This document shows positions 955 through 64,000 of a DNA stretch of 64,000 nucleotides, piece after piece (position 1 is the stretch's first letter; every line of letters begins with the position of its first letter). The notes under the pieces are model-generated. The model saw nothing but the letters and a program-made list of their open reading frames with translations, was not told the DNA's origin and searched no databases. The DNA is from Flectonema sp. DT1601. Taxonomy: Eukaryota. The position numbers were made by a program, and so were the translations under genes. The stretch lies in assembly GCA_964019425.1 (NCBI GenBank), contig OZ025796.1:124001-188000 (forward strand), given 5' to 3'.

Positions 955-2379
955 CTACGCAGATTTTAAATTACTCCATTGGATGTCGAGGTCTTGTCCT
1001 TCCATCTTTGCTTCCCACAGAGGAGATAGTTCTCTGAGAGTCTTAACCGCGTGGACCACAGATTTTGCTGTGAAATCAATTTCTTCACTTGTAGTAAACC
1101 TTCCAATTCCAAAACGTAGTGAGGTGTGTGCAGTTTCCTCCGCTACTCCCAAAGCTCTTAGAACGTACGATGGTTCGAGAGAAGCAGACGTGCAGGCGCT
1201 TCCACTGCTGACAGCGATTTTGTTAATTCCCATCAGCAGGGATTCACCCTCAACACAATCAAAAGAAATATTTAAATTACCCGGGTATCTTGCTGTTGAT
1301 GCTAAGTCTGGTCCATTCATAAAGATTTCTGGCAGCTCTGAATTTAACGTATTCCAAAGTTGGTTAGCTAAGCCATTGATGTGGTCGCTGTCATTCTTCA
1401 TCTCACGAAGTGCTACTGAAGCAGCCTCACCTAAACCAACACAAAGTGGGGCCGGGACAGTTCCGGAACGAATTCCCTTCTCCTGACCTCCTCCACTGAT
1501 TGGTGAAGTGATTCTTGCTCTTGGTCTCTGTTCGTTTTTAGTTTACATCTAGTCAAAAAAAGATAACTACAATAAGAAATAAACACATACTCTTCTCACG
1601 TACAGGGCACCGATACCCTTCGGTCCATACATTTTATGACCAGAAATGGAAAGCAAATCAATCTTCAGTTTCTCAACATCAATTGGAATCTTTCCAACAG
1701 CCTGAGCAGCATCACAGTGGAATAGGATTTTACGTGCTCTGCAGAGTCGGCCTATTTCTTCGAGAGGTTGAATAACTCCGATCTCGTTATTAACAGCCAT
1801 GATACTCACTAATGAAGTCTCTGGAGTCATCGCTTCTTCTAACATGTCTAAAGCAACTACTCCTTCCTTATTAACAGGTAGGTATGTGACTTTAAAACCT
1901 TCCATTTCAAGTTGACGACAGCTCTCAAGAACGCACTTGTGCTCTGTTTGTAATGTTATTATGTGCTTCTTGGTCTCTTTACGGAAGTTTGCAGCTCCTT
2001 TTATTGCGATATTGTTCGACTCGGTTGCTCCGGAGGTGAAGAATACTTCGCGAGAAACATCGGCACCGATGAGGTTCTTTAACTGTTTTTTTTTGTTGTT
2101 GTTGTGCTACCGTAAAGTATTGAAAGAGTTAACGAAAATGGTACAAACGTTTTCTCTCGCTTGTTCCACTGCATGTTCCGCATCCCAGCCGTATTCGTGA
2201 GTTCTGCTGTGAGGGTTGCCATAGCTTCCAAGCATGAATGGCATCATTGAGTCTAACACTCGAGGATCAACTGGCTGGGTTGCTTGAGCATCAAGGTACA
2301 CAGCCCTCCCTAAAATATCCTCTGAGTGATGCATGTGACGTACACCTGAACGGCGTACGCATCTAGCAATTGTCTTCAT
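955..2379 (-). CDS. NFS1: Mitochondrial cysteine desulfurase, 3 exons (2379-2149, 2082-1591, 1527-955; 431 aa)
   Basis: Motifs [45 protein letters not shown] (PLP lysine) and SSGSACTS (catalytic Cys). Removing introns 2083-2148 (GTTTGT..CAG) and 1528-1590 (GTATGT..CAG) joins the ORF-track pieces in frame. Confidence 0.96.
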
Positions 2380-14248: not shown

Positions 14249-17200
14249 TTAATGTAAACATAAAACAGATATCAGCAAGACAATCATCACATAATGAGGT
14301 CTGTCGACTGATGCTATTGAACTATCAACTGGTCCGTCGTAATAAATACCTTCAGAGCTATATGACCAAGGAGGTAACACCGGCTCTGGAGTCGGCGGTA
14401 AAGTCACCAACTCTGAAACTACTTTGAACGATTGTTGCAAGATACTCTCACTACCTCCAGGTGAGACAGCATCTTGGAGAAGAAACAAAACAGAATCAGG
14501 ATTAGAAGATGAAACGGTAAAGAAAACTTTATAAATAGTCTCAGCAAACTGTAAGACTCTATACGTTCGGGAGTCGCATGATATTCTTTCACCAGTTTTG
14601 ATAGAATGCCTACAAAGTTTATCAATTCGCATATGTGACACATCCACAGCTGTTGTAGTTTCAATAACTGATAAGAACAGCAGCGGATCAAATGTAGTCC
14701 CCTGAACGCTTAATACAAAATGAACATCAGATAAAATTTGTTGAGTCAGAGTAAAAGAATTATATCCAACAAGTTGAACTGTAAAGGTTAAGTTCCCAAC
14801 CTCAAGATCGAGAGTCCCAGATTGAATTTCAGTTTCGAGTCGGAATAAGAATTCAACGACACCACCCACCGCAATGACATTCGTTGTATTTCCAACTATG
14901 AACGAATTATCTGAATTTGAAACCATCAGCGTGTGTTCCGTGAAATAATCACCACTGTGTCTCTCACCTGAAGCTGTAGTCGTTTCTAATTTTATGATAT
15001 TATTACGCAGCGCGAATACCTCTAATTGTTGATTAGAAAAGAGTCTTAAACCTGAAACAGGAACCCAAACAATATTTGTTTTGAGAATTGGAAAAGAATC
15101 CATCCTCACAATAAACCAATTAACAATATCAACAGTTGAGGTATCATTACTGACAGAATCAAAGTCGTCATTTGGTTGTGATAGAAATAGTTCACCAGAT
15201 CCGTTGAAGAAATTAAATCCAAAACCTGACGATAATGGATTCATTAGTTTCCAAGGGTCAAACTGATCATCTTCATCTGAAATAAAAACAGCAGTGAACT
15301 GCTCTCCATTAATAGAACTGTCAACGTTACCAAAGTCATCCACAGCTGATATTTTTATAATCGCTTGTTTGGTTCCTTGAACATCAACACCCATGGGTAG
15401 ATCATTTACCAATTTTGTCGCTTGAATGCCAATTGTGAAATTATCACTCTCTCCATGTATCAGTCGATTACTACCTGTAAGGTGGATCTCAACAGAGAAT
15501 GAGCATTTTTTATTTTTAAACGTCGGCTGTAATGCTTTCACCGTGACTGTAGATTCACCTTCGACAGTGTTTTCACTTCTAGTTTCGATGTCACAAGTTC
15601 CATTGTTTGATATTATAACAACTGAAGATCCACGGTCACCCAAAACAATATTGTTATTTTTATCTAAAATCGACACAATAAAAACAGCATCAACCCCAAC
15701 AACTATATCACTAACCTGGTTCACCACAGCTGAGTATGCTTCTTGAGAAACAAACACCAACTCATAATTTATTATTGGCAGACTCCCTTTAAACAACACA
15801 GCACATGTTCCAACAGCGTTAAACGACAATAACACAATCGACGTATTGGTAAGAGTGTGAGAGTATAGCCCAGATATGGATTGTTTTGGAATGTCACAAA
15901 CACTTCCATAAATTGAAACATCAATCGAGATTCTATTCATTTGATAATTGTGAACAGTATTTCCAAGTGAATCTTCTACTGCTACGACGATATTCACTTC
16001 ATTCCCGAGTACAACATTTAAAGAGCTGACATGCAATCGAAGAGCTGTTGCTGTTGGTTCAATAAGTGATATCGCAATGCTACCTTTTGATGTGATTCCT
16101 GGATTGATTTGAAGGATGCAAATCTTTTCAGTTGTCGCAGTGAATCTAACAGACAATTCCATAACAGATCGTTCCTCAAAGACTATCGTTTTATTATTCG
16201 ATATGCTTTCGATACCTCGAACAGCAAAAATACAACTGCTGTTAAGTACGACTAGTGATTTTTTAACATAAACGACAGTTGGAGGTTCGTAGCTGGTAAT
16301 TGATACTGCGAACCAGTTTAAAAAAGCAACAGGTGATCCCCAAGATAGTCGACGTTGACTGCGTTCGATTCCGAATAGAATCTTATTTTGAATCGGCGAC
16401 ATGATAGAAATCTTTTTACTTTCACCGAAGATCTGCATGTTTGATGTGAAACTTGTACAACAAGTAACTGATATCGTTGACACTCCTGAAGACGTAAACG
16501 ATCCATTAATAGAAACTTCTCCATCTCGAAACAGCAACAACTCCCCTTCAGATACTTGGAATGATCCCTTCGGTAATATCAACGAATACCTCGCAAATAA
16601 ATGTCTCATCGAAGTGTCTCCACCAACACTGAAATCCCTCCAACCGAAATTATCGACTGCCGTTACTTTTACCATCAGCGTTTGATTAACGTAGAATGGG
16701 GGTTTTGATGTTATTGTAATCATCAGTGTTGAAGCTGATGCATAAATTGGCATTACCCAATTTTGGTTTGTGTCACTTCGTAATGACAGAAGACACCTTG
16801 AACATGGATGTGATACTTCCAATAGAATAGAATACAATCCATTATCGATTGTTGAATCTTTTACTCGTATCAACACTGATCCGTTGGTTACAAAAAGACT
16901 TCGTCTTGAATCGATAAACTCCCTGTGTTGTAACACAGTATTACCACCACCATCAATAGCCTCCAGTACTACTGAGAAGGCTTGTAGTCTTATCGCTGTT
17001 TTCGGATGGTATCTTATGATGTATTTCTTAAAAGGGGCTTCAATACGAAACACTTGTCCACTGACACCTGTCAGGTAGAATTCTCTCTCAGATAACCCTC
17101 CTCCGGGAACATTCATCGGACGTACTGCAATCCTACAGGCAATACAGCTTTCACTAAAGAATAACACCACTGAAGTCTCCGCTGAGGTAAAAAAATGACT

Positions 17201-20200
17201 CTTAGGTTCAATTCCGAGTGAACGATTCTTTTGATACATCTGATTAGAGATGTGAGTAGGATCTGGAATGACAGAGAAGTGCAATGTGACACCAGAAGAC
17301 GGAGAACTGACAGCAATCTTGTTGAACATTTTTAAGACAGAGGAGAAGCTGATTGGGACGCCAACAGCAACTGAGAGCATATTTGATGGCAACACGTGAT
17401 TTAGTGCCACCAACTGAGGAGTACCAACTTTAACAGAAACATTAACATCAACATACGAGTACCTAGCTGGCAGCACGCAGTCAACAGTTGTGCAGGAGTC
17501 TGGAAGAAGTGAAAATCTAATTTCACAGTTCTCGCAAGGTGATCCAAAATGAAGCCAAACAATCGAAGCACCATTAACAACCTTTGCTGGAGAAGTCAAT
17601 AACGGAAGTCCAGCATTACAACCTGTAGTAGGTGATAATAAAGTTGGGGTTACGATACCTGATATTGACAGTGATGGATATCCGTGAGAGTCAACAACAT
17701 TGACGCTAACTGGGAATGCTTGTTTTGCTATCGCAGTACCATCTTGTAATGACCAAGAAGGGTTACCAGATTGTAAAACATTATCAGATGAAACAATCTG
17801 AACTGATGAACCTGACACTCCACTTACAACAACTCTTGATGGTAGTTCTGGTGCTCTCCAGTATGTTGAATGTGGGAAGGTGTAAGAGCCGAGTGGGAAT
17901 CCCAATTGGTTAGTTGCCTCAGTCATAACTTTTAGTCTTCCCCACATATCTCTCGATAAGGAATCATCCTTAGTCGCTGGGTTCAGTCCAAGTATTGAAA
18001 ATTGTAATCCACTTCGATTCCCATTTAGAACATCTGAGAGCCGCCGTTCAATTGACGAGGTTCCCGAAAGCCATTTAGATATGACTTCTTCTCCATCATC
18101 TTGACACTGTGAGTTGGGACATGTGAAACGTTGAACACCAACACCCCCTTCTTTACGTAGATAAACTCTCGCAGATAAAGAATAATCAATAATCCCAGCA
18201 TCATCAACAGCGTAGACCTGAAGGTTTATGAGAGGATCAGTAACTGGATACGCACCTCTAGCTGGTAATCTCGTAGCGTTGGTGTCATTAACCGGCAGGT
18301 CAGGTTTTATAAACAACGATGTGGCTACAGGTCTCAACGATACAGCTATCTTACTACCAGATACGACTTTTGCAGAATCTTCAAAAGAGATAAAACATTG
18401 AAGACAAGGTGACGTAATATGAAAATGAAACACAGCTTCACCCTTTACAAAAGGAGCTCCTAATTTTGAGTGATTCACATTAGACATTACCAAAGAACCC
18501 CCATTACCTTCTGTTGCTTTATTACCAACAAATTGCGAAGACAAAACTGCGTATCCTCTCTTCGATTGCCCAGAGTAACTGGCGTCAGGTGTTTTGTAAG
18601 CGTCAGCAGCAAACACAGTCATTGTAACTTGTTCTTTGGTTTTTAACTCGTACCAGTTTGGATTTAATTGTGCAACGACCCCGGGTCCTTCAAGTGTTTT
18701 TATTAGGTATTGAGTTGCAACTGGTCGAGAGAAGATCTCAAATGATGTGAGTTCACAGCTGCGAGTTGTTTCTAACTGCGTCCAGGAATCTGATGAAATA
18801 GGTGCTGAAAACTTTATAAAACAATTCGAACAAACAGACGCAAACTGTGCGAGGATATGAACCATTCCGTTAACAAGTTGATAATTTTTATTTTCCTCAA
18901 CCAGATTAACTCCACTACTACCAGACAACTTTACAGATATTGACGATCTAATATTTAATCCCGTTGAGCTCACTGTTCTAACAATTACATAAAACTGAGA
19001 ACCAACTGATGCTCTGTGAAGTCTTGGATTCGGATCTGCTGAGCATTCTATTCTATCAATAGTACTGACAACACTAAAAGGTGATAACGACAAGATAGAT
19101 CCTCCCCATGAATTTCTAACTGAAATGATACATCTCTGACAAGGTGTAGTAACTCTGAGGTTTTTAAACGTTGCGATTCCGTCAACAAAACTAGCCGTAA
19201 GATTTCCCAATAAGAGTGGTTTATCATAATCTAAACCACAGCAATCGGATAAGAAGACCGTTCCCAAACCCTGATTGCCATCATCTCGAATACCACGACC
19301 ATCAACAGCTGTTATTACTAGTGTTTCAAAATAAACATTCATTCCAATCATATTTGATAGCTCAGACAACAATAGTAATCTACTGCTAATAGTTCTTATC
19401 GACACAAATATAGAACAGTTTGAAAACTTGTTTCCGTTTGATAAAATAACTGTTAGCTTACACTTACTTAATTTGCTACATCCCTGAAGCATTTTAATAC
19501 TTATAATTAAATTTCGTTTATCGTGTGGTGGTGTTGGAGATGAAGTTGAAATCGGAACAGCAACAATACGACCAGATATGGGAGGGATGTGTAAGGTGTG
19601 TTGAAGCATCGCATCAACAGAAACAGGGATTCCTTCATGATTCTCACCTCTTAGCTCGAAGTCATAGATCTCCCCAACTTGAAATATACCCTCGGGTACT
19701 TGATTGAGTGATATTATCCTTTCAGCTTTGACTGGTTTTATTAATACATCTAATCTACCCATAGTAATCCACTCTCCGTCATCACGATAAATACCTACAT
19801 TAAATACCAATACTATACTGTTCATTAATGGCTTTGTTGGTTTCAGTTTAAATATTGAACTGAGCTCTCCTTTTTTAAATTCCGACTTAAACACAAGTCC
19901 CGTATCACTTGCACATCCTCCAACACAGTTAATGTTGATTTGTCTGAGCGCGCTTGAGTGACTTTCGTTGAAAAAAACCCACGCAGGATACGATGTCGAC
20001 TCAGCAAAAACTGAGTTGTTGTTTAATAAAAATGATTTTATTAAAAGCGATTGTCCTTCCCAAAGTGTTTTATAATACAAATTACCTGGATTGATATGCG
20101 GGATAGGTACGATAACATTCACCATACTGGGTGACAATATCACTGGAGCAGACTGAATACCATTCCAATGCATTGAAGTATCTGACAGAGTGGAAATCGC

Positions 20201-23200
20201 TTTTCCCTTAACAACACATTCTTCATAATAGCATCCATGTGGTATTTGGATCACGACAGATGCGTGTCCTTTGTTAAAAAAAGTTTTATCTTTACCCCAT
20301 CCGTATAAATTATTGTTATCAGTACAAGTTTGAGAAGTGACAGAGTATGAGTTTCGTAAGAATGATTTACCTGACAGGGTGACTATAATGTAACATGACC
20401 AGTGATCTACTACTACTTGTCCTCGGTCTGATAGTAGAAAAAATGATAATCTAAAAAACGAACCTTCACTAACAACGTCATTCGTATAATTGTCTAAGAC
20501 AGTAAATGAATTTGATAATATTTCCAAATCCTCGTATGTAACGTTCATTGATTTAATTTTAAAGTCTTCACTCCCAGTTGTTAATTGTTGAGTTCCAAGA
20601 GACGCACTCTCTCCATTTCTCAACGCTAATGTTGGAATTTGAATCCAAACACCAGATCGTATCCTAGTCCCAACAGCAGAATTCCTTCTTATGTAACAAA
20701 CAACATTAAATGTGTTTGATTTCCATGATTCTGTTGACAGTACTAAAGTTTCAGCTTGTGATAAATAACCTGATGAACTAAGAGATGATGTCAATGGATG
20801 TAGTGAAGTATCACCTGACAGACATCCGAGTGGATTAGTTAAAAGTGATATTACTTTTATACTGTCAGCTGTTGACACTTTTTCAGGTATTTCAGTTTCC
20901 TGAACTGAAATCGCTGATATAGACGGAGCTGATTCCGGGATTGGTACACTCGTAGCCCACTCATCTATTAATGAAACTTTTCTTACCAAACTATTCCATA
21001 AGTAGTAGACAGCTGATTGGACTACATCTATCCTACCAACACTTATCCAAATATCAACCCTACTGTAGTAATAACATAAAGTATACTTACCTTCTATGGG
21101 AGGAACAACAGCTGAAATAGTCATCGAAGTAGTGGTAGAAGATGATAAGTTACTAGTTTGGGTGGTTATGTTGATGGAAGTATCAGTGCAACTGTCAGGT
21201 AACTCTTCAGATACAATCATAAATAAATCAGTATCCGAAGAAATAGAATTACTAACACCGTCTACCTTGATACTATTCTCTAACACAGACCCAGCCACAA
21301 TCGCTGTCGGAACATCCGTAGCGTTGTAAGATGAACTTCCAGTGAATGATGCTTGTCGGACTTCCTCGATAATTTGAAGGAGGGAGGTGCTATTTAATGG
21401 TTTAATCTCCAACCAAATACCTCCAGTAGCTTCATTCTTATAACATATTCGATACTGTCCTGATTGCCTAGGTAGTGTTATGGTTAATAATGAATATTGT
21501 AGATTCTTATAACCACTCGGTCTGATTATGTTAGTCGCTACTCGTGGAGATCCAGATCCACAGAAATACTTTTCAGATATTATCTCAGCAAAGTCGATGT
21601 CAGGATTGAAAGAAACACATTGCGGACAACTACTCCGAGAGAATCGAACTTGAACGATACTTCCTCCAATATAAGTATCTGTTCCTAGAGAAGGTAGTAT
21701 AGAGTACATCATAAAGGATGATGTGATACTAACAGAGGGTGTCATTTGAAACCAAGACTGCGACGTTCCATAACAAGCAACCATCTTCTGCGGTATTTTA
21801 AAATCGTGAACCGGATTTGTATATTTTGATATCGCGATTTTTGATCCATTTAAAGATGTTTTTAATTGAAAATTTGACGTTAAAGTTTCCTGAACAGCTT
21901 GTTGTTGACAGTCGATGTCGGTTCCTTTATACAAAACTAATTTAAAGGAATCAGACGACTGCAAACTATGACCAAAATCACTATAAAACACGATCTCTGA
22001 TAACGATCCTGAACGACTTGATGACACGCTATGACGAACAGTGAAACCATTCGATGGAGTCAAACCTTTTGTTCTTTCATTCGTATTGGTTACTTCTATC
22101 GATAGCTGTAAAACATTTTCTGATCCAAAAGGAAAATAACACAACGAATACGACTCTCGACTCCCAATCTGTTTTGGTAATAAAACAGAAAACGTTGCTG
22201 TACTATAACCCGAAGAATCAGTGACTGGAATTGAAATCGTTTGATAAGACTCCAGAGGAGTTAAATAGCAAAATGATTCGTTTTGAAGAATTGAGATTAT
22301 GTCATTTGGATTCATGATGTATTTGTCTTTGTGTGATTTTAACGTAACGAGAGTTATCGATGATTCAATTAGTTCAGAAACAGATGCGTAGAGTTGTATC
22401 TCAGCTGATGTTCGAAGTATAAAAGAATCCTCTTGTCGATAAACAACTCCATCACTTCCGGGAGCTCTGTAATATCGGTTTTCAAAATAGTTCGGATTCT
22501 CAATCGTTATCCAATTCCGAGAACCTAATTTCAGACATACGAAATATCCATCTGTCTCACCACTACTACTTCCTGAGACCAGTGATGGGAATGAGAAAGG
22601 AGGTAATAGTAACCATGCTGTCAACATCCCTTTGTTAATATTAGTATCGATGGAGTTGTACTGTGAGATGTCCCACGTCTCACTTAGTGGATGTAAAGGA
22701 TTGTCTGCGAGACAATTCCCATTCACATATGAACTTATAATTTTAACAGCGATGCTTCGTTCGTCAACGATGGTGTCAACTTCGTGCCAGGTATTTTTCA
22801 CCGGGCTTATCGTTTTGCTCGAAACGACGTCAAAGAGAACGACCGGAGCAAAAGTACCTCCGCGGGTATCGTTGATCGAGTAAGTCACGTTTACGGTGGT
22901 CGCAGTCGGGTGGACCAAACTTCCTAAAACTCTCCAATTATCATCTTGTTGTCGATAGCAAACAAAACTACTTTGAGTAGGTACCTTAAAGTAACCGTAC
23001 GTAGTATTCGATATTTCTTCATCGACTTTCATAAAATTAATTTCTCGTGGATTACCTCCCAAGTCAAAACTCTCCAGATCACTATCACTATGCCAACATC
23101 CTTTATAAGGATATAAAGTCTCAGAAGCAGTGTCGTATAACTGAGAAGGATATGAAAAGAAAACACTATACGGGACGACACGAAATGCATCACCACCAAC

Positions 23201-24577
23201 GTGAGTGAAATGACTGTTACTTTGACTAGGTGATGATGATAAGAATGAAGTAAATTTTGAATATGGTTTTGTAAATTTTAATATTCCCCATGACTTCTCA
23301 GTTAAGTCAAGTGAACTCCACTCGACGGTATCAATTTGATTAGCTGATGAAGGGACTGGGTAGACTGTTATCAAAACATCATTCTCACTACTTACATTAC
23401 TAAGAACTCTCCAACCAGGACTCTGCAATGTGACGTCAGCTGATTTCAATGAAAGCCTTTCAGACGATGCCGAATAACATAGTTTATAATCCGTAGTCTT
23501 TGTAACTGACGGTAGTTTAATATAAACAACTGGTACTCCAGTGTATAAAATAGTTTTATCATATTGCCATGGAACATGTTCATTTGTTCCCACTGATGGT
23601 GAAAAACCACCTTCAGTAGATCCATATGCGATAGCTTCATAGTAACCAGATGCGATAAAACTTGATACTGGCATTGCATCAGAATGAGTTCCTGGATACT
23701 TAACTACTCCTGATTGGTATAAACTTGATGATTCTGATAAACAAGTTGCTGTTGCTGGTATTAGTTTAGCAATGTCTCGTCTCCAGCTTGACTCCTGATG
23801 AACAGTCGATGGGTTAAATGAAAACAAGTCTGTATAAGAAGTACTTCCAATTACTTCAAATCCAATAAAATCGTTCGAATAGAATTTCGATCCAGAACTG
23901 TGTCGGAAATACAATTCCGATGCGTTTGGAATGTGGGATTCGTATCCCGTTGTTGGAGTTTCCCATGACCGAGTTTTACTTGTTTTTCCTATGAAGTTCC
24001 AACTTGATTGAAATTTCTCAGTACCCCAGTTGTCCATTCCAGACTCATTGAAATATGACTTTGATTTTCTAATACAAAGTCTCCATGCTGTTTCTGGGAC
24101 AGTGAATGTCGCATATCCAGTGGAACTCATGCCGTGTGGGGATGTGCCGATAGCGTCCAGTAGGTCTGTCGATTCGAATATCGTGTCATTCTCGTAGTGA
24201 GTTTCACATTTTGTTTGTGTTCCTTCCCAATAGAAATTACCAAACTCATCCGTATCTCGTCTCCCTCCTCCAACATAAGCGTTTATCATTCTGATACCTG
24301 CCTCGTTTTCTGAAATATTTAATAGTTGCCAAGTATTTGCTATGTCAGTGATATTTACATCTGTTCCAAGACCAGATATCTTCAACTCGACTCTAAATAC
24401 AATTCCAGTTGCCATCGTTGAGGAATCACAACCTCCGCATATTACGGTCAGATCATAATTAAAGTTTTTATCATTCTCTGGATTAGGATAGTCACCCCAA
24501 CTATCTGAACCGTGTACTAGTGAGGATGTTATTATTATCAGTAACAGTCCCACAACACAAACAGGTGGTATACTCAT
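14249..24577 (-). CDS. Giant intronless secreted/surface protein (~3440 aa) with repeated beta-rich modules
   Basis: Uninterrupted ORF of about 10.3 kb. Signal peptide MSIPPVCVVGLLLIII, recurring Y-x-[LIV]-C-Y...W modules in the N-half, Ig-like A-V-D-x-x-G and PCxxC modules in the C-half, a Pro-rich stalk and a hydrophobic C-terminus (TM or GPI signal). Confidence 0.85.
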   Translation of the reverse strand: MSIPPVCVVGLLLIIITSSLVHGSDSWGDYPNPENDKNFNYDLTVICGGCDSSTMATGIVFRVELKISGLGTDVNITDIANTWQLLNISENEAGIRMINAYVGGGRRDTDEFGNFYWEGTQTKCETHYENDTIFESTDLLDAIGTSPHGMSSTGYATFTVPETAWRLCIRKSKSYFNESGMDNWGTEKFQSSWNFIGKTSKTRSWETPTTGYESHIPNASELYFRHSSGSKFYSNDFIGFEVIGSTSYTDLFSFNPSTVHQESSWRRDIAKLIPATATCLSESSSLYQSGVVKYPGTHSDAMPVSSFIASGYYEAIAYGSTEGGFSPSVGTNEHVPWQYDKTILYTGVPVVYIKLPSVTKTTDYKLCYSASSERLSLKSADVTLQSPGWRVLSNVSSENDVLITVYPVPSSANQIDTVEWSSLDLTEKSWGILKFTKPYSKFTSFLSSSPSQSNSHFTHVGGDAFRVVPYSVFFSYPSQLYDTASETLYPYKGCWHSDSDLESFDLGGNPREINFMKVDEEISNTTYGYFKVPTQSSFVCYRQQDDNWRVLGSLVHPTATTVNVTYSINDTRGGTFAPVVLFDVVSSKTISPVKNTWHEVDTIVDERSIAVKIISSYVNGNCLADNPLHPLSETWDISQYNSIDTNINKGMLTAWLLLPPFSFPSLVSGSSSGETDGYFVCLKLGSRNWITIENPNYFENRYYRAPGSDGVVYRQEDSFILRTSAEIQLYASVSELIESSITLVTLKSHKDKYIMNPNDIISILQNESFCYLTPLESYQTISIPVTDSSGYSTATFSVLLPKQIGSRESYSLCYFPFGSENVLQLSIEVTNTNERTKGLTPSNGFTVRHSVSSSRSGSLSEIVFYSDFGHSLQSSDSFKLVLYKGTDIDCQQQAVQETLTSNFQLKTSLNGSKIAISKYTNPVHDFKIPQKMVACYGTSQSWFQMTPSVSITSSFMMYSILPSLGTDTYIGGSIVQVRFSRSSCPQCVSFNPDIDFAEIISEKYFCGSGSPRVATNIIRPSGYKNLQYSLLTITLPRQSGQYRICYKNEATGGIWLEIKPLNSTSLLQIIEEVRQASFTGSSSYNATDVPTAIVAGSVLENSIKVDGVSNSISSDTDLFMIVSEELPDSCTDTSINITTQTSNLSSSTTTSMTISAVVPPIEGKYTLCYYYSRVDIWISVGRIDVVQSAVYYLWNSLVRKVSLIDEWATSVPIPESAPSISAISVQETEIPEKVSTADSIKVISLLTNPLGCLSGDTSLHPLTSSLSSSGYLSQAETLVLSTESWKSNTFNVVCYIRRNSAVGTRIRSGVWIQIPTLALRNGESASLGTQQLTTGSEDFKIKSMNVTYEDLEILSNSFTVLDNYTNDVVSEGSFFRLSFFLLSDRGQVVVDHWSCYIIVTLSGKSFLRNSYSVTSQTCTDNNNLYGWGKDKTFFNKGHASVVIQIPHGCYYEECVVKGKAISTLSDTSMHWNGIQSAPVILSPSMVNVIVPIPHINPGNLYYKTLWEGQSLLIKSFLLNNNSVFAESTSYPAWVFFNESHSSALRQININCVGGCASDTGLVFKSEFKKGELSSIFKLKPTKPLMNSIVLVFNVGIYRDDGEWITMGRLDVLIKPVKAERIISLNQVPEGIFQVGEIYDFELRGENHEGIPVSVDAMLQHTLHIPPISGRIVAVPISTSSPTPPHDKRNLIISIKMLQGCSKLSKCKLTVILSNGNKFSNCSIFVSIRTISSRLLLLSELSNMIGMNVYFETLVITAVDGRGIRDDGNQGLGTVFLSDCCGLDYDKPLLLGNLTASFVDGIATFKNLRVTTPCQRCIISVRNSWGGSILSLSPFSVVSTIDRIECSADPNPRLHRASVGSQFYVIVRTVSSTGLNIRSSISVKLSGSSGVNLVEENKNYQLVNGMVHILAQFASVCSNCFIKFSAPISSDSWTQLETTRSCELTSFEIFSRPVATQYLIKTLEGPGVVAQLNPNWYELKTKEQVTMTVFAADAYKTPDASYSGQSKRGYAVLSSQFVGNKATEGNGGSLVMSNVNHSKLGAPFVKGEAVFHFHITSPCLQCFISFEDSAKVVSGSKIAVSLRPVATSLFIKPDLPVNDTNATRLPARGAYPVTDPLINLQVYAVDDAGIIDYSLSARVYLRKEGGVGVQRFTCPNSQCQDDGEEVISKWLSGTSSIERRLSDVLNGNRSGLQFSILGLNPATKDDSLSRDMWGRLKVMTEATNQLGFPLGSYTFPHSTYWRAPELPSRVVVSGVSGSSVQIVSSDNVLQSGNPSWSLQDGTAIAKQAFPVSVNVVDSHGYPSLSISGIVTPTLLSPTTGCNAGLPLLTSPAKVVNGASIVWLHFGSPCENCEIRFSLLPDSCTTVDCVLPARYSYVDVNVSVKVGTPQLVALNHVLPSNMLSVAVGVPISFSSVLKMFNKIAVSSPSSGVTLHFSVIPDPTHISNQMYQKNRSLGIEPKSHFFTSAETSVVLFFSESCIACRIAVRPMNVPGGGLSEREFYLTGVSGQVFRIEAPFKKYIIRYHPKTAIRLQAFSVVLEAIDGGGNTVLQHREFIDSRRSLFVTNGSVLIRVKDSTIDNGLYSILLEVSHPCSRCLLSLRSDTNQNWVMPIYASASTLMITITSKPPFYVNQTLMVKVTAVDNFGWRDFSVGGDTSMRHLFARYSLILPKGSFQVSEGELLLFRDGEVSINGSFTSSGVSTISVTCCTSFTSNMQIFGESKKISIMSPIQNKILFGIERSQRRLSWGSPVAFLNWFAVSITSYEPPTVVYVKKSLVVLNSSCIFAVRGIESISNNKTIVFEERSVMELSVRFTATTEKICILQINPGITSKGSIAISLIEPTATALRLHVSSLNVVLGNEVNIVVAVEDSLGNTVHNYQMNRISIDVSIYGSVCDIPKQSISGLYSHTLTNTSIVLLSFNAVGTCAVLFKGSLPIINYELVFVSQEAYSAVVNQVSDIVVGVDAVFIVSILDKNNNIVLGDRGSSVVIISNNGTCDIETRSENTVEGESTVTVKALQPTFKNKKCSFSVEIHLTGSNRLIHGESDNFTIGIQATKLVNDLPMGVDVQGTKQAIIKISAVDDFGNVDSSINGEQFTAVFISDEDDQFDPWKLMNPLSSGFGFNFFNGSGELFLSQPNDDFDSVSNDTSTVDIVNWFIVRMDSFPILKTNIVWVPVSGLRLFSNQQLEVFALRNNIIKLETTTASGERHSGDYFTEHTLMVSNSDNSFIVGNTTNVIAVGGVVEFLFRLETEIQSGTLDLEVGNLTFTVQLVGYNSFTLTQQILSDVHFVLSVQGTTFDPLLFLSVIETTTAVDVSHMRIDKLCRHSIKTGERISCDSRTYRVLQFAETIYKVFFTVSSSNPDSVLFLLQDAVSPGGSESILQQSFKVVSELVTLPPTPEPVLPPWSYSSEGIYYDGPVDSSIASVDRPHYVMIVLLISVLCLH

Positions 24578-24659
24578 GTTGCATGTTACTGAATAAAGAC
24601 ATAAGGTTAAGCAGACGCCGAACACAAAGTATCACTAAAACGTGTAATATTTTAAACCC

Positions 24660-24800
24660 TTTGCCACTACCAGTTGCCATAACCTCCACATGTTACGATC
24701 AAATCATAATTAAGGTTTTTATCATTCTCTGGACTGGGATACCATGTGTACTAGTGAGGATGCTTTCAATAACACAAACAGCTGAAGACTCATGCTCATG
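24660..24800 (-). pseudogene. Degenerate tandem copy of the 5' end of the giant surface-protein gene
   Basis: Shares plus-strand blocks ccagttgccat, atcataattaa, ttttatcattctctgga and gtgtactagtgaggatg in the same order as 24404-24530, with internal deletions. Confidence 0.85.
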
Positions 24801-24935
24801 ATAGTTAGTATCATTAATTTTAGAACAGAAAAGTGAGAATAAGAAAAGTAGAGATTAGTAAAAGAAAAGTATTCATGTCAGCAGTAATAGAATACGTAGT
24901 TTAAGGCCTTAATCTTATACCACTGCTCATGATAG
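24793..24935 (-). mobile_element. 5'-truncated copy of the Penelope-like element 3' end (insert 24805-24923) with 12-bp target-site duplication
   Basis: Near-identical to 62571-62710 apart from substitutions and one short internal indel. Flanked by the direct repeat tgctcatgatag at 24793-24804 and 24924-24935. Confidence 0.9.
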
Positions 24936-61675: not shown

Positions 61676-62673
61676 TACTATTGTCTTTTTTGTTTTTTTT
61701 CTCGATGTTTATAAATGAAGTTTTCGAATTTACCGATGAAAGAAAATCCCGTTTGCTTTTATATTTTTTTTTTTTTTTTTTCTTTGGTTTGTTGTAGTTT
61801 TTTTTTTTTTTTTTTTTTTTTGCTGCTTATATTTGTATTCCCGTGGAAAAATAAATCCTCAGTTCATAGTTACTATTTTAATGTGTGGGTTTTAGTGGGT
61901 AACTTTTTCCCCTGTTTATGAAAAATATGAAATTAGTTAGAATTAGTTTATGAGATAAAAAAGAAAAATCATCATTATGATGTTCCATAAAAAAACACAC
62001 TTGGACGTGAAATTCGTAATAATTTCAGCAGAACTAATCTTTTCAAAAAAAGATTTTTTTTTTTTTTTTTTTTTTTTTTGATAAAAATCGAGTTTATCAA
62101 TGCTGGTGGTTAGTATTACAAACAAATAATGGTTGGCTTTGGTATTTATTTTGTATCCCATTTAACATAGTTCCCCTATATCAATGAACACGCGTTACCA
62201 ACTAATGAGTGTTACTTAGTTACATTGATGGGGGTGAAACTTTGCCAAGGTGAAAACATAGATATTAAAAACAAGATTAATATCAAAAGTACATGACTGA
62301 AAAGAAATATTTGTAGTTGTTAATCAAAGAAAAGGTACGTTTAGAACATAAAAAAGGGAACATCTTTTGTCTTATTGACCAGAAGACGTTGTCCAATCTG
62401 ATGTTGATGAGAGGAATAATGAAGGTTTCCACTCATAAAAACAGATTTATCGATTTCGGTTAGCTAGTTGGTATTAATAGTTGTCAGTCAATCAAAAAAA
62501 AAAGAAAATCAAATGCAAAAATTCGTAGGACATCAAACAAAATGGTTGGTTTCTTAGGGTAGACATTGGTTAGTTAGTATCATTAATTTTAGAACAGAAA
62601 AGTGAGAATAAAAAAAGTAGAGATCAATAAAAGAAAAGTATTCATTTCTGCAGTTTCCTAACATCAAAGGGTA

Positions 62674-62760
62674 ATAGAATATGTAGTTTCAGGCCTTAAT
62701 CTTATACTACTTGTCCCTTTTTAGGCCTTCATCAGTAAGTTCTAAGGGACTTCATTCTAT
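62674..62760 (-). ncRNA. Hammerhead-like ribozyme with non-cyclically permuted strands
   Basis: CUGAUGA (62735-62729), GAAA (62690-62687) and a GUA cleavage triplet (62707-62705). Stem I CUUA/UAAG, stem II AGGCCU/AGGCCU, stem III ACUAC/GUAGU, plus extra helices GUCCCUU/AAGGGAC and AUAGAAU/AUUCUAU. Confidence 0.72.
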
Positions 62761-62839
62761 GTTGAAGTTGCTATCGTTCAAAGATAAAAATCCATCGGAG
62801 CTCGCCAGGATAGGGCTAGCAATGTTTATTTGCTTTTGC

Positions 62840-64000
62840 TCAATTTGAATTTTTGACGTCTGATCGTTTCACTATTACAGTCGAGTTAATGGATGAGTCG
62901 TCATCCAATTTGCGTTTTACTTTATCTTCGCATATCATCAAAGGTCCTATATTCGCTGGTGTCATCGTAACATCCATATCAGTCTGAGCTTTTATTGGTA
63001 TCATATGGAAACTATACTCTGTAGTTCGGTACATCTTGTCAAAATGATCGAAAGGGAGTCTTAAATCTTTTGTGCCTTTAAGAATGTCTCGGATGATCAT
63101 GGACTCAAATGAGACTAGCGCAACAATAAAGTGAGTCATCCTTGTTTTCGCTTTATGTAGAATAAGTGCTGCGGCTGCTTCAGGATAATCGAAATCTGCT
63201 GGGTTAACGAAGTACTCGATTCTTCTGTTGAATTTAGTCATGCAAGCCATGTTAAGTACTTGTAGCGAGAACCAACCATCTGGTGATGGTTTATGCTCTG
63301 AGTTGTTCGGTTCTACTTTAAGAGATTCTTCATAAAATCGCTGTTGGTAGTTTTGCAGAAAACTGAAGTTAATTCTATCGATATATAAATGATCTGCAAT
63401 GAAGTTGAGCGCTGCCCATCCGCATTCTCCACCGAGAAGACCTTCTCCTGATGTTTGATGTAGGGATGGTGGAAATCGTTTATCCAAGGAATGGCTTGTA
63501 GAGCCTGTGTGGTTAATTGTATCCTTTTCGATGCTTAATGGGACTTTGTGACTAAACTTCTCAAAAGTAAGGTTGATACGACGCATTGCAGCTGCTGTAT
63601 TACCATCATCAATGTGAGAGCTAATGAAGCGGAGGCATGCTGCTCTGATATTGTCAGATTTATAGCCCCGGTTGAGTAATCTATAAGTTACCGCTTCAAG
63701 TTCCTGTAAAAAGTCTGCCTGGTTGTTGCAGATTTTTAGAGCTCGTAAGATCATGGTGGTAAAGATACCTGAACCCATTGACTCTTGAGCTGCGGAATGC
63801 TGATGAGTAAACCTTGTTGGCGTAATATGCCAACCCCTGGCTTTGTCATTAACACTTAAACGAATCCATCGTTTATTTGTGTTAGTGATCTCTATTCGGA
63901 TACGAATTCCTATATAAGAGACATCATCAATATTATTCGAAGTATCAGTGTAATCCATTGAGTACAGACTTGCTGGTGGAGGGTCACAACTCCAGGTGAG
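62840..64000 (-). CDS. C-terminal part of PLE reverse transcriptase fused to a Josephin-like protease domain (5'-partial)
   Basis: The frame is open to the window edge (LTWSCDPPPASLYS-MDY...). VSYIGIRI..LSVNDK..RFTHQHS..GIFTTMILRALKICN..F..E....LLNRGY matches PLE RT motif 7 and thumb. It is followed by ECGWAALN, DGWFSLQVLNMA, THFIV, IIRDIL and EYSFHMI, which parallel the Josephin domain. Confidence 0.85.
   Translation of the reverse strand, partial: LTWSCDPPPASLYSMDYTDTSNNIDDVSYIGIRIRIEITNTNKRWIRLSVNDKARGWHITPTRFTHQHSAAQESMGSGIFTTMILRALKICNNQADFLQELEAVTYRLLNRGYKSDNIRAACLRFISSHIDDGNTAAAMRRINLTFEKFSHKVPLSIEKDTINHTGSTSHSLDKRFPPSLHQTSGEGLLGGECGWAALNFIADHLYIDRINFSFLQNYQQRFYEESLKVEPNNSEHKPSPDGWFSLQVLNMACMTKFNRRIEYFVNPADFDYPEAAAALILHKAKTRMTHFIVALVSFESMIIRDILKGTKDLRLPFDHFDKMYRTTEYSFHMIPIKAQTDMDVTMTPANIGPLMICEDKVKRKLDDDSSINSTVIVKRSDVKNSN

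Follow-up and report, generated by a model that had tools for sequence, protein, structure and literature searches.

A Penelope-like element in a probable diplonemid genome

At one end of the 64-kb stretch of DNA analysed here (the window) lies the 3' part of a Penelope-like open reading frame, which runs on the minus strand from 64000 to 62840, encodes 386 aa and remains open at the window edge. Its residues from about 1 to 130 match reverse transcriptase (RT) proteins behind the YIDD/FIDD motif, in the thumb region, and agree with RTs of the PLE type. The closest RT relative is from Flectonema neradi (52%), and others are from Diplonema papillatum. A second domain, about aa 171-347 (63490-62960, minus strand), is predicted from a structure model and from relatives to have a Josephin fold of the cysteine protease kind. 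With a 9-row alignment the model of this C-terminal domain reached a pLDDT of 87, and four of five structure matches at E<=0.001 were Josephin domains with a TM of about 0.55; a fold from the single sequence reached a pLDDT of 40 only, and a profile run against PDB sequences returned only an ataxin-3-like match at E = 0.94. By analogy, we take C193, H290 and D305 to be the candidate triad of this domain. The protein P0001 had no Pfam match, and no longer homologue was found for it by word search.

A phmmer search with the ORF protein yielded 82 relatives. Among the 35 that were scanned for domains, five carried an N-terminal GIY-YIG domain, eight RVT_1, eight a C-terminal UCH domain and two a Josephin domain, and a CxC motif preceded the RT in eight of 11 relatives inspected; GIY-YIG and CxC are thus features of the relatives, the N-terminus of the element itself being located beyond the window edge. 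The deubiquitinase-type module behind the RT, Josephin or UCH/USP, seems to have been swapped among related elements. The domain set of the relatives matches the features of the Chlamys elements in the accessible part of the study by Craig et al. (2021, PMC8557442), on which all statements about Naiad and Chlamys elements made here are based. Naiad and Chlamys elements share the N-terminal GIY-YIG domain and the CxC motif with the relatives of the Flectonema ORF, and Chlamys-1_cBra has a C-terminal Josephin-like motif as does the Flectonema element. Judged from sequence comparison and modelling, the element is a Chlamys-like Penelope element with an RT thumb and a predicted Josephin-fold domain. 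The accessible text of Craig et al. lists no diplonemid host, and such Penelope-type elements may be undescribed in diplonemids. Regions of Penelope-type RT or of GIY-YIG occur in several D. papillatum gene models that go by the names of kinesin, ubiquitin hydrolase 26 or V-ATPase subunit.

The host is likely a diplonemid, because the RT relatives include proteins from F. neradi and D. papillatum, the best named match of the host prohibitin is from D. papillatum (64%) and the ORFs are confined to one strand. All 19 ORFs of at least 200 aa are on the minus strand, as are both copies of the element; this one-strand arrangement is that of euglenozoan gene clusters, among them those of Diplonema, which are likely co-transcribed according to the accessible part of PMC10161547. 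Elsewhere in the window, an aminotransferase class V (cysteine desulfurase-like) gene at 955-2106 (minus strand) is divided into two ORFs by a short intron or a frameshift, and a 3460-aa open frame without Pfam match occupies 14249-24631 (minus strand).

A hammerhead motif of type CSG in the 3' untranslated region

The 3' untranslated region of the element extends on the minus strand over 62571..62839 and ends at about 62571 at a CTAA-type repeat, this end being common to a second copy of the element at 24.9 kb. Eighty nucleotides past the stop codon of the ORF, an 87-nt motif starts (62674..62760, minus strand) whose RNA, read from 62760 to 62674, contains all hammerhead core nucleotides and five helices in which every pair is of the Watson-Crick type. 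The letters and helices read as originally predicted, with a complete core and with each of the three stems (I, II and III) directly next to it.

The motif is built from three blocks. Block C (62723..62739) comprises the 5' strand of stem I, CUGAUGA (62735-62729) and the 5' strand of stem II; block S (62701..62710) consists of a stem III strand, the GUA triplet, the cut site and the 3' strand of stem I; block G (62683..62696) contains the 3' strand of stem II, GAAA (62690-62687) and the other stem III strand. A linker of 4 nt (62697-62700) connects S to G. Stem I (CUUA/UAAG, 62739-62736/62704-62701) has 4 bp, stem II (AGGCCU/AGGCCU, 62728-62723/62696-62691) 6 bp and stem III (ACUAC/GUAGU, 62710-62706/62687-62683) 5 bp. 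Two further helices of 7 bp each are formed by a leader strand (62744..62750) that pairs with 62719-62713 and joins stems I and II, and by a closing helix (62760-62754/62680-62674) with 62754..62760 as its 5' strand. By analogy with other hammerheads, cleavage is predicted after GUA, between 62705 and 62704, which is 135 nt past the stop codon and 134 nt before the element 3' end common to the second copy.

Stem I is AU-rich, an isolated 4-bp duplex of this sequence having +0.3 kcal/mol; pair 10.1-11.1 is A-U, and the two strands of stem II are the same self-complementary palindrome. A nested fold of -20.5 kcal/mol (z = -2.95; equally good in two of 200 shuffles) comprises stem III together with the closing and leader helices; stems I and II would form between the two loops, a pairing that nested models do not allow. 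Within the leader helix the pair probability was 1.0 for five of seven pairs. The minimum free energy fold has competing pairs within the leader loop.

The block order had originally been described as A-C-B and put forward as a topology of which no description was known. It is in fact type CSG, one of the six hammerhead block orders named by Eckert et al. (2023, PMC10085705; here and below as given in the accessible part of the article). The Flectonema motif has the blocks in the order C, S, G, with CUGAnGA, GAAA and UH abutting stems of 4, 6 and 5 bp and a 7-bp helix that connects stem I with stem II. Type CSG is represented in that article by two similar soil-metagenome sequences, named CSG-1 and CSG-2, which were cut at the predicted site in vitro and, while being transcribed, cleaved with rates of 0.004 and 0.026 per min (PMC10085705). 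The authors called the evidence for biological relevance of CSG weaker, and none came from a known organism (PMC10085705). Their structure line has a leader helix and a stem I of 6 bp; AA is the spacer that precedes stem III, and 5 nt link S to G. A helix like the leader helix was shown to be required in SGC-3 (PMC10085705).

Block order, leader helix, the 2-nt AA spacer and an S-to-G linker of 4-5 nt are common to CSG-1/2 and the Flectonema motif. The latter differs in having GUA instead of GUC at the cut site, a stem I of 4 bp instead of 6 bp, A-U instead of G-C at pair 10.1-11.1, a palindromic stem II, spacers of 3-4 nt around the leader helix and an extra closing helix of 7 bp. Of the two helices thought to be additional, the leader helix is the I/II-joining helix already drawn for CSG, and the closing helix, although present, looks optional for reasons given below. 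A further difference lies in the setting: CSG-1/2 are from anonymous soil metagenomes, whereas the present motif resides in a eukaryotic genome and in an identifiable retroelement. In the literature searched, which covered few subscription journals, a printed link between CSG and a retroelement was not found; the accessible parts of PMC13725137 and of bioRxiv 10.64898/2026.07.22.740005 add none. We conclude that 62674-62760 is a new example of the published type CSG and that its setting in a eukaryotic Penelope element is what is new.

To assess chance, a CSG descriptor with stems of at least 4 bp and G-U pairs permitted was run over both strands. It returned 62674-62760 as the only match in the window and no match in 400 dinucleotide shuffles. 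Both extra 7-bp helices arose together from random 30-mers of the window in 0.05% of 20,000 draws. Rfam 15 gave no match in the window at gathering scores. When all six block orders were searched over 62200-63200, the CSG fold with stems of 4, 6 and 5 bp was accompanied by two weak alternatives, in which stem I had 3 bp, stem III 2-3 bp and the site was 170-280 nt off. A type III fold at the upstream GUC (62750-62748) was rejected, as none of the six orders gave a fold that made use of that triplet, and a circular type I, II or III three-way junction was likewise discarded given no Rfam match and only those weak, distant alternatives. The 87-nt motif is real, and its interpretation as a pseudoknotted hammerhead of non-circular permutation, situated in the 3' untranslated region of a Penelope-like element, is upheld.

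Copies and relatives of the motif

Parts of the stretch are covered by contigs from three sequencing runs (X1, X2 and X3); as RNA ends and expression are beyond the reach of contigs, X2 is not taken as proof of transcription. A 709-nt X2 contig from an RNA library spans 62646-63348 and differs at 44 of 703 positions with eight gaps, no difference being listed within 62674-62760. Compared with the ORF rate of 8%, zero changes in 87 nt correspond to P = 7e-4. The whole 193-nt 3' part is conserved in this contig, with 0/87 changes in the ribozyme and 3/106 in the flanks of the untranslated region (Fisher P = 0.25), so that the ribozyme block is not distinct from its flanks in X2 conservation.

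A second subfamily, represented by one contig each in X1 and X3, departs from the sequence past 62677. In its X3 contig the stretch 62677-62744 is shared, with two other letters and the loss of one spacer A, while both flanks differ; therefore the core is the part that was kept. If the 5' strand is unchanged, at most four of the seven closing pairs are left in this subfamily and, judged by sequence, this helix seems to be optional. An insertion of 2 nt in stem II of one X3 copy speaks against strict constraint. No compensatory change was found among the close copies, that is, the contigs and the 24.9-kb copy; stem letters that differ do keep pairing in CSG-1/2 and in five Naiad elements described below, as parsed by eye.

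The 24.9-kb copy (24805..24924, minus strand) is a 5'-truncated, decayed 3' end with an 18-nt deletion and eight mismatches in 123 aligned positions, three of them in the first 38. It is flanked on the same strand by an 11-nt direct repeat resembling a target-site duplication, with the upstream copy at 24925..24935 and the downstream copy at 24794..24804; the first 3 nt of the latter also match the element end, and the repeat occurs only twice in the window. The copy shows that the 3' end of the element was mobile. Its first nucleotide, at the stem III base, precedes the predicted cut by 7 nt instead of coinciding with it, and we infer that the copy was reverse transcribed across the cut site from a template that was uncut or rejoined. 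GUGGU in stem III, which had been put forward as a change that keeps pairing, is indeed present, but the copy lends no support to the ribozyme since it is without the leader and the CUGAUGA block and carries G12U (UAAA for GAAA). Its changes are neutral decay, and its use as covariation was ruled out for a decayed fragment. A tandem (pLTR) arrangement was absent from the window, where this single 5'-truncated copy with its flanking direct repeat was seen.

In other collections, none of 169 loci picked for carrying core words (at least 120 viral, followed by 13 viral, 20 metagenomic and 16 prokaryotic) formed stems of 4/4/4 bp. One 3/3/4 match among the first 120 was dismissed as a coding-like chance match, and tblastn found no PLE protein at loci L121-L153 of the pattern scans. 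A family-specific pattern had no viral match, and protein P0002 identified no related loci in viral contigs. The metagenome pattern had a fixed AA spacer and stem III, so that variants of the Naiad type would escape it, and the published CSG contigs were not returned. The metagenome, viral and prokaryote scans gave chance matches only and no close relative with compensatory changes.

Candidate type-CSG motifs in Naiad elements

According to Craig et al. (2021), canonical hammerheads are missing from Naiads and from most Chlamys elements, and eight cases termed "HHR_half_core" have halves 35-50 nt apart for which no fold was proposed (PMC8557442). The Flectonema motif resembles this class, its core halves being 38 nt apart and located in the 3' untranslated region. 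We inspected core words in the supplement of that study (CTGACGA 23/23, CTGATGA 60/62, CTGAAGA 12/43 and CTGAGGA 10/25), a procedure that words split by a line end escape. The sequences of Naiads and of CSG-1/2 were parsed by eye, neither aligned nor scored, and the family names of Naiads were deduced from the next header and from table order.

Five Naiad 3' ends parse in this way as complete CSG hammerheads, namely Naiad_Parc, Naiad-2_Nbra, Naiad-3_Nbra, Naiad_Hcon and Naiad_Smim; a sixth 3' end probably belongs to Naiad_Ppac. In the five, the leader helix has 7-13 bp, stem I 5-6, stem II 4-5 and stem III 6-12 bp, with linkers of 3-5 nt. Their stems are unrelated in sequence and stem II is palindromic in none; three of the five belong to the eight half-core families. 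No Chlamys consensus sequence parsed as CSG at the core-word places inspected. The CSG hammerhead may be the ribozyme that the Naiad/Chlamys group was thought to lack. Type CSG had rested on two anonymous sequences without a known organism, and the absence of canonical hammerheads from Naiad and Chlamys elements had been taken as a sign of a dispensable or parasitic ribozyme. The CSG motif in a Chlamys-like protist element, together with the same design in several Naiads flagged as half-core, joins these two gaps, and short testable constructs as well as a descriptor for a clade-wide search result from it.

Proposed mechanism and alternative explanations

We consider it probable that the motif is a type-CSG hammerhead in the 3' untranslated region of a Chlamys-like Penelope element, likely folding within one molecule, with a predicted cut after GUA by standard hammerhead chemistry that would trim element RNA from longer transcripts. 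In the computed fold, a nested scaffold of leader helix, stem III and closing helix would form first, leaving block C in one loop and the partner strands of stems I and II in the other. Two loop-loop pseudoknots, stems I and II, would follow and complete the standard core, the leader helix standing in for a loop I/II contact. The cut would set the ends of RNAs transcribed from tandem copies (pLTR) or by read-through from the host; for other Penelope hammerheads a role in RNA processing has been proposed in the accessible part of PMC4209133, the source of all statements on these ribozymes. Because 22 bp span the predicted cut, the products would stay paired, giving a nick and not a release, and an RT crossing such a nick would explain the 24.9-kb junction.

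Of the competing explanations, the one that fares best, though we judge it unlikely, is that the motif derives from CSG and is slow or inactive here, carried along in a conserved 3' end, an RT-binding structure being one example of such a part. The weak stem I, the A-U pair closing stem II, the competing pairs within the leader loop and the conservation of the entire 3' part in X2 all fit this explanation, as do the apparent origin of the 24.9-kb copy from an uncut or rejoined template and the slowness of the published CSG RNAs. It is at odds with a core in which every nucleotide is intact and none is listed as changed in the X1 and X2 contigs, and with the second subfamily, which keeps mainly the ribozyme block.

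The original prediction had also considered a dimeric or trans-cleaving design, in which self-complementary stem II would pair between two RNAs or tandem copies. Both stem II strands being the same palindrome, and a nested cofold of two copies being 6.5 kcal/mol better than two monomers, speak for such a complex, and in other Penelope elements minimal hammerheads of type I act as dimers (PMC4209133). These resemble the Flectonema motif in that their core lies within the terminal repeat region of such an element, but are circular in order and often have a weak, palindromic helix III that needs the dimer, whereas the order here is non-circular and helix III is a stable 5-bp stem, so that the need for dimers is absent. 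Moreover, in the predicted dimer the two G blocks pair with each other, a non-catalytic arrangement, and the monomer energy omits both pseudoknots. The idea is further weakened by stem II of CSG-1/2 and of the Naiad examples, which is non-palindromic, and we find a dimer as the active form rather improbable, even slightly more so than a slow or inactive motif. Cleavage in cis is favoured because the CSG stems of Naiads are unrelated and non-palindromic. A chance arrangement, or a conventional type I, II or III hammerhead with its site at the upstream GUC or far away, we regard as highly improbable: the window without any Rfam 15 match would suit it, but it is opposed by the 400 empty shuffles, by an upstream GUC left unused in all six orders and by a likeness to the published CSG design that reaches the spacers.

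The preferred cis-cleaving CSG hammerhead may be set in a wider frame. Some six further Naiad 3' ends (PMC8557442, supplement parts 10-12 and 24) parse by eye in a different order, with the 5' strand of stem II, then S, then G and then CUGAUGA. These other-order 3' ends share an S-linker-G module with CSG. We tentatively raise the possibility, to which we give less than even credence, that the entire Naiad/Chlamys clade, with hosts ranging from diplonemids to nematodes and spiders, has non-circularly permuted S-linker-G hammerheads as its native ribozyme, and that this clade is the home of the orphan type CSG; about 20 bp across the cut would keep the products unreleased, and the cut would be a reversible nick that RT can cross.

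Repeats at the 3' end of the element

Contigs of run X1 stop at 62569 and those of run X2 at 62574, close to the shared end at about 62571. CTAA-type repeats are present at the 3' end of the element (62571-62560) and directly upstream of truncated X3 copies, whose loose ends are behind 62810 and 62845; they point to a microsatellite as the target or to tandem insertion. Pieces of 62300-62560 are matched by contigs of X2 and X3 as well, so either the element or a different repeat may continue beyond 62571.
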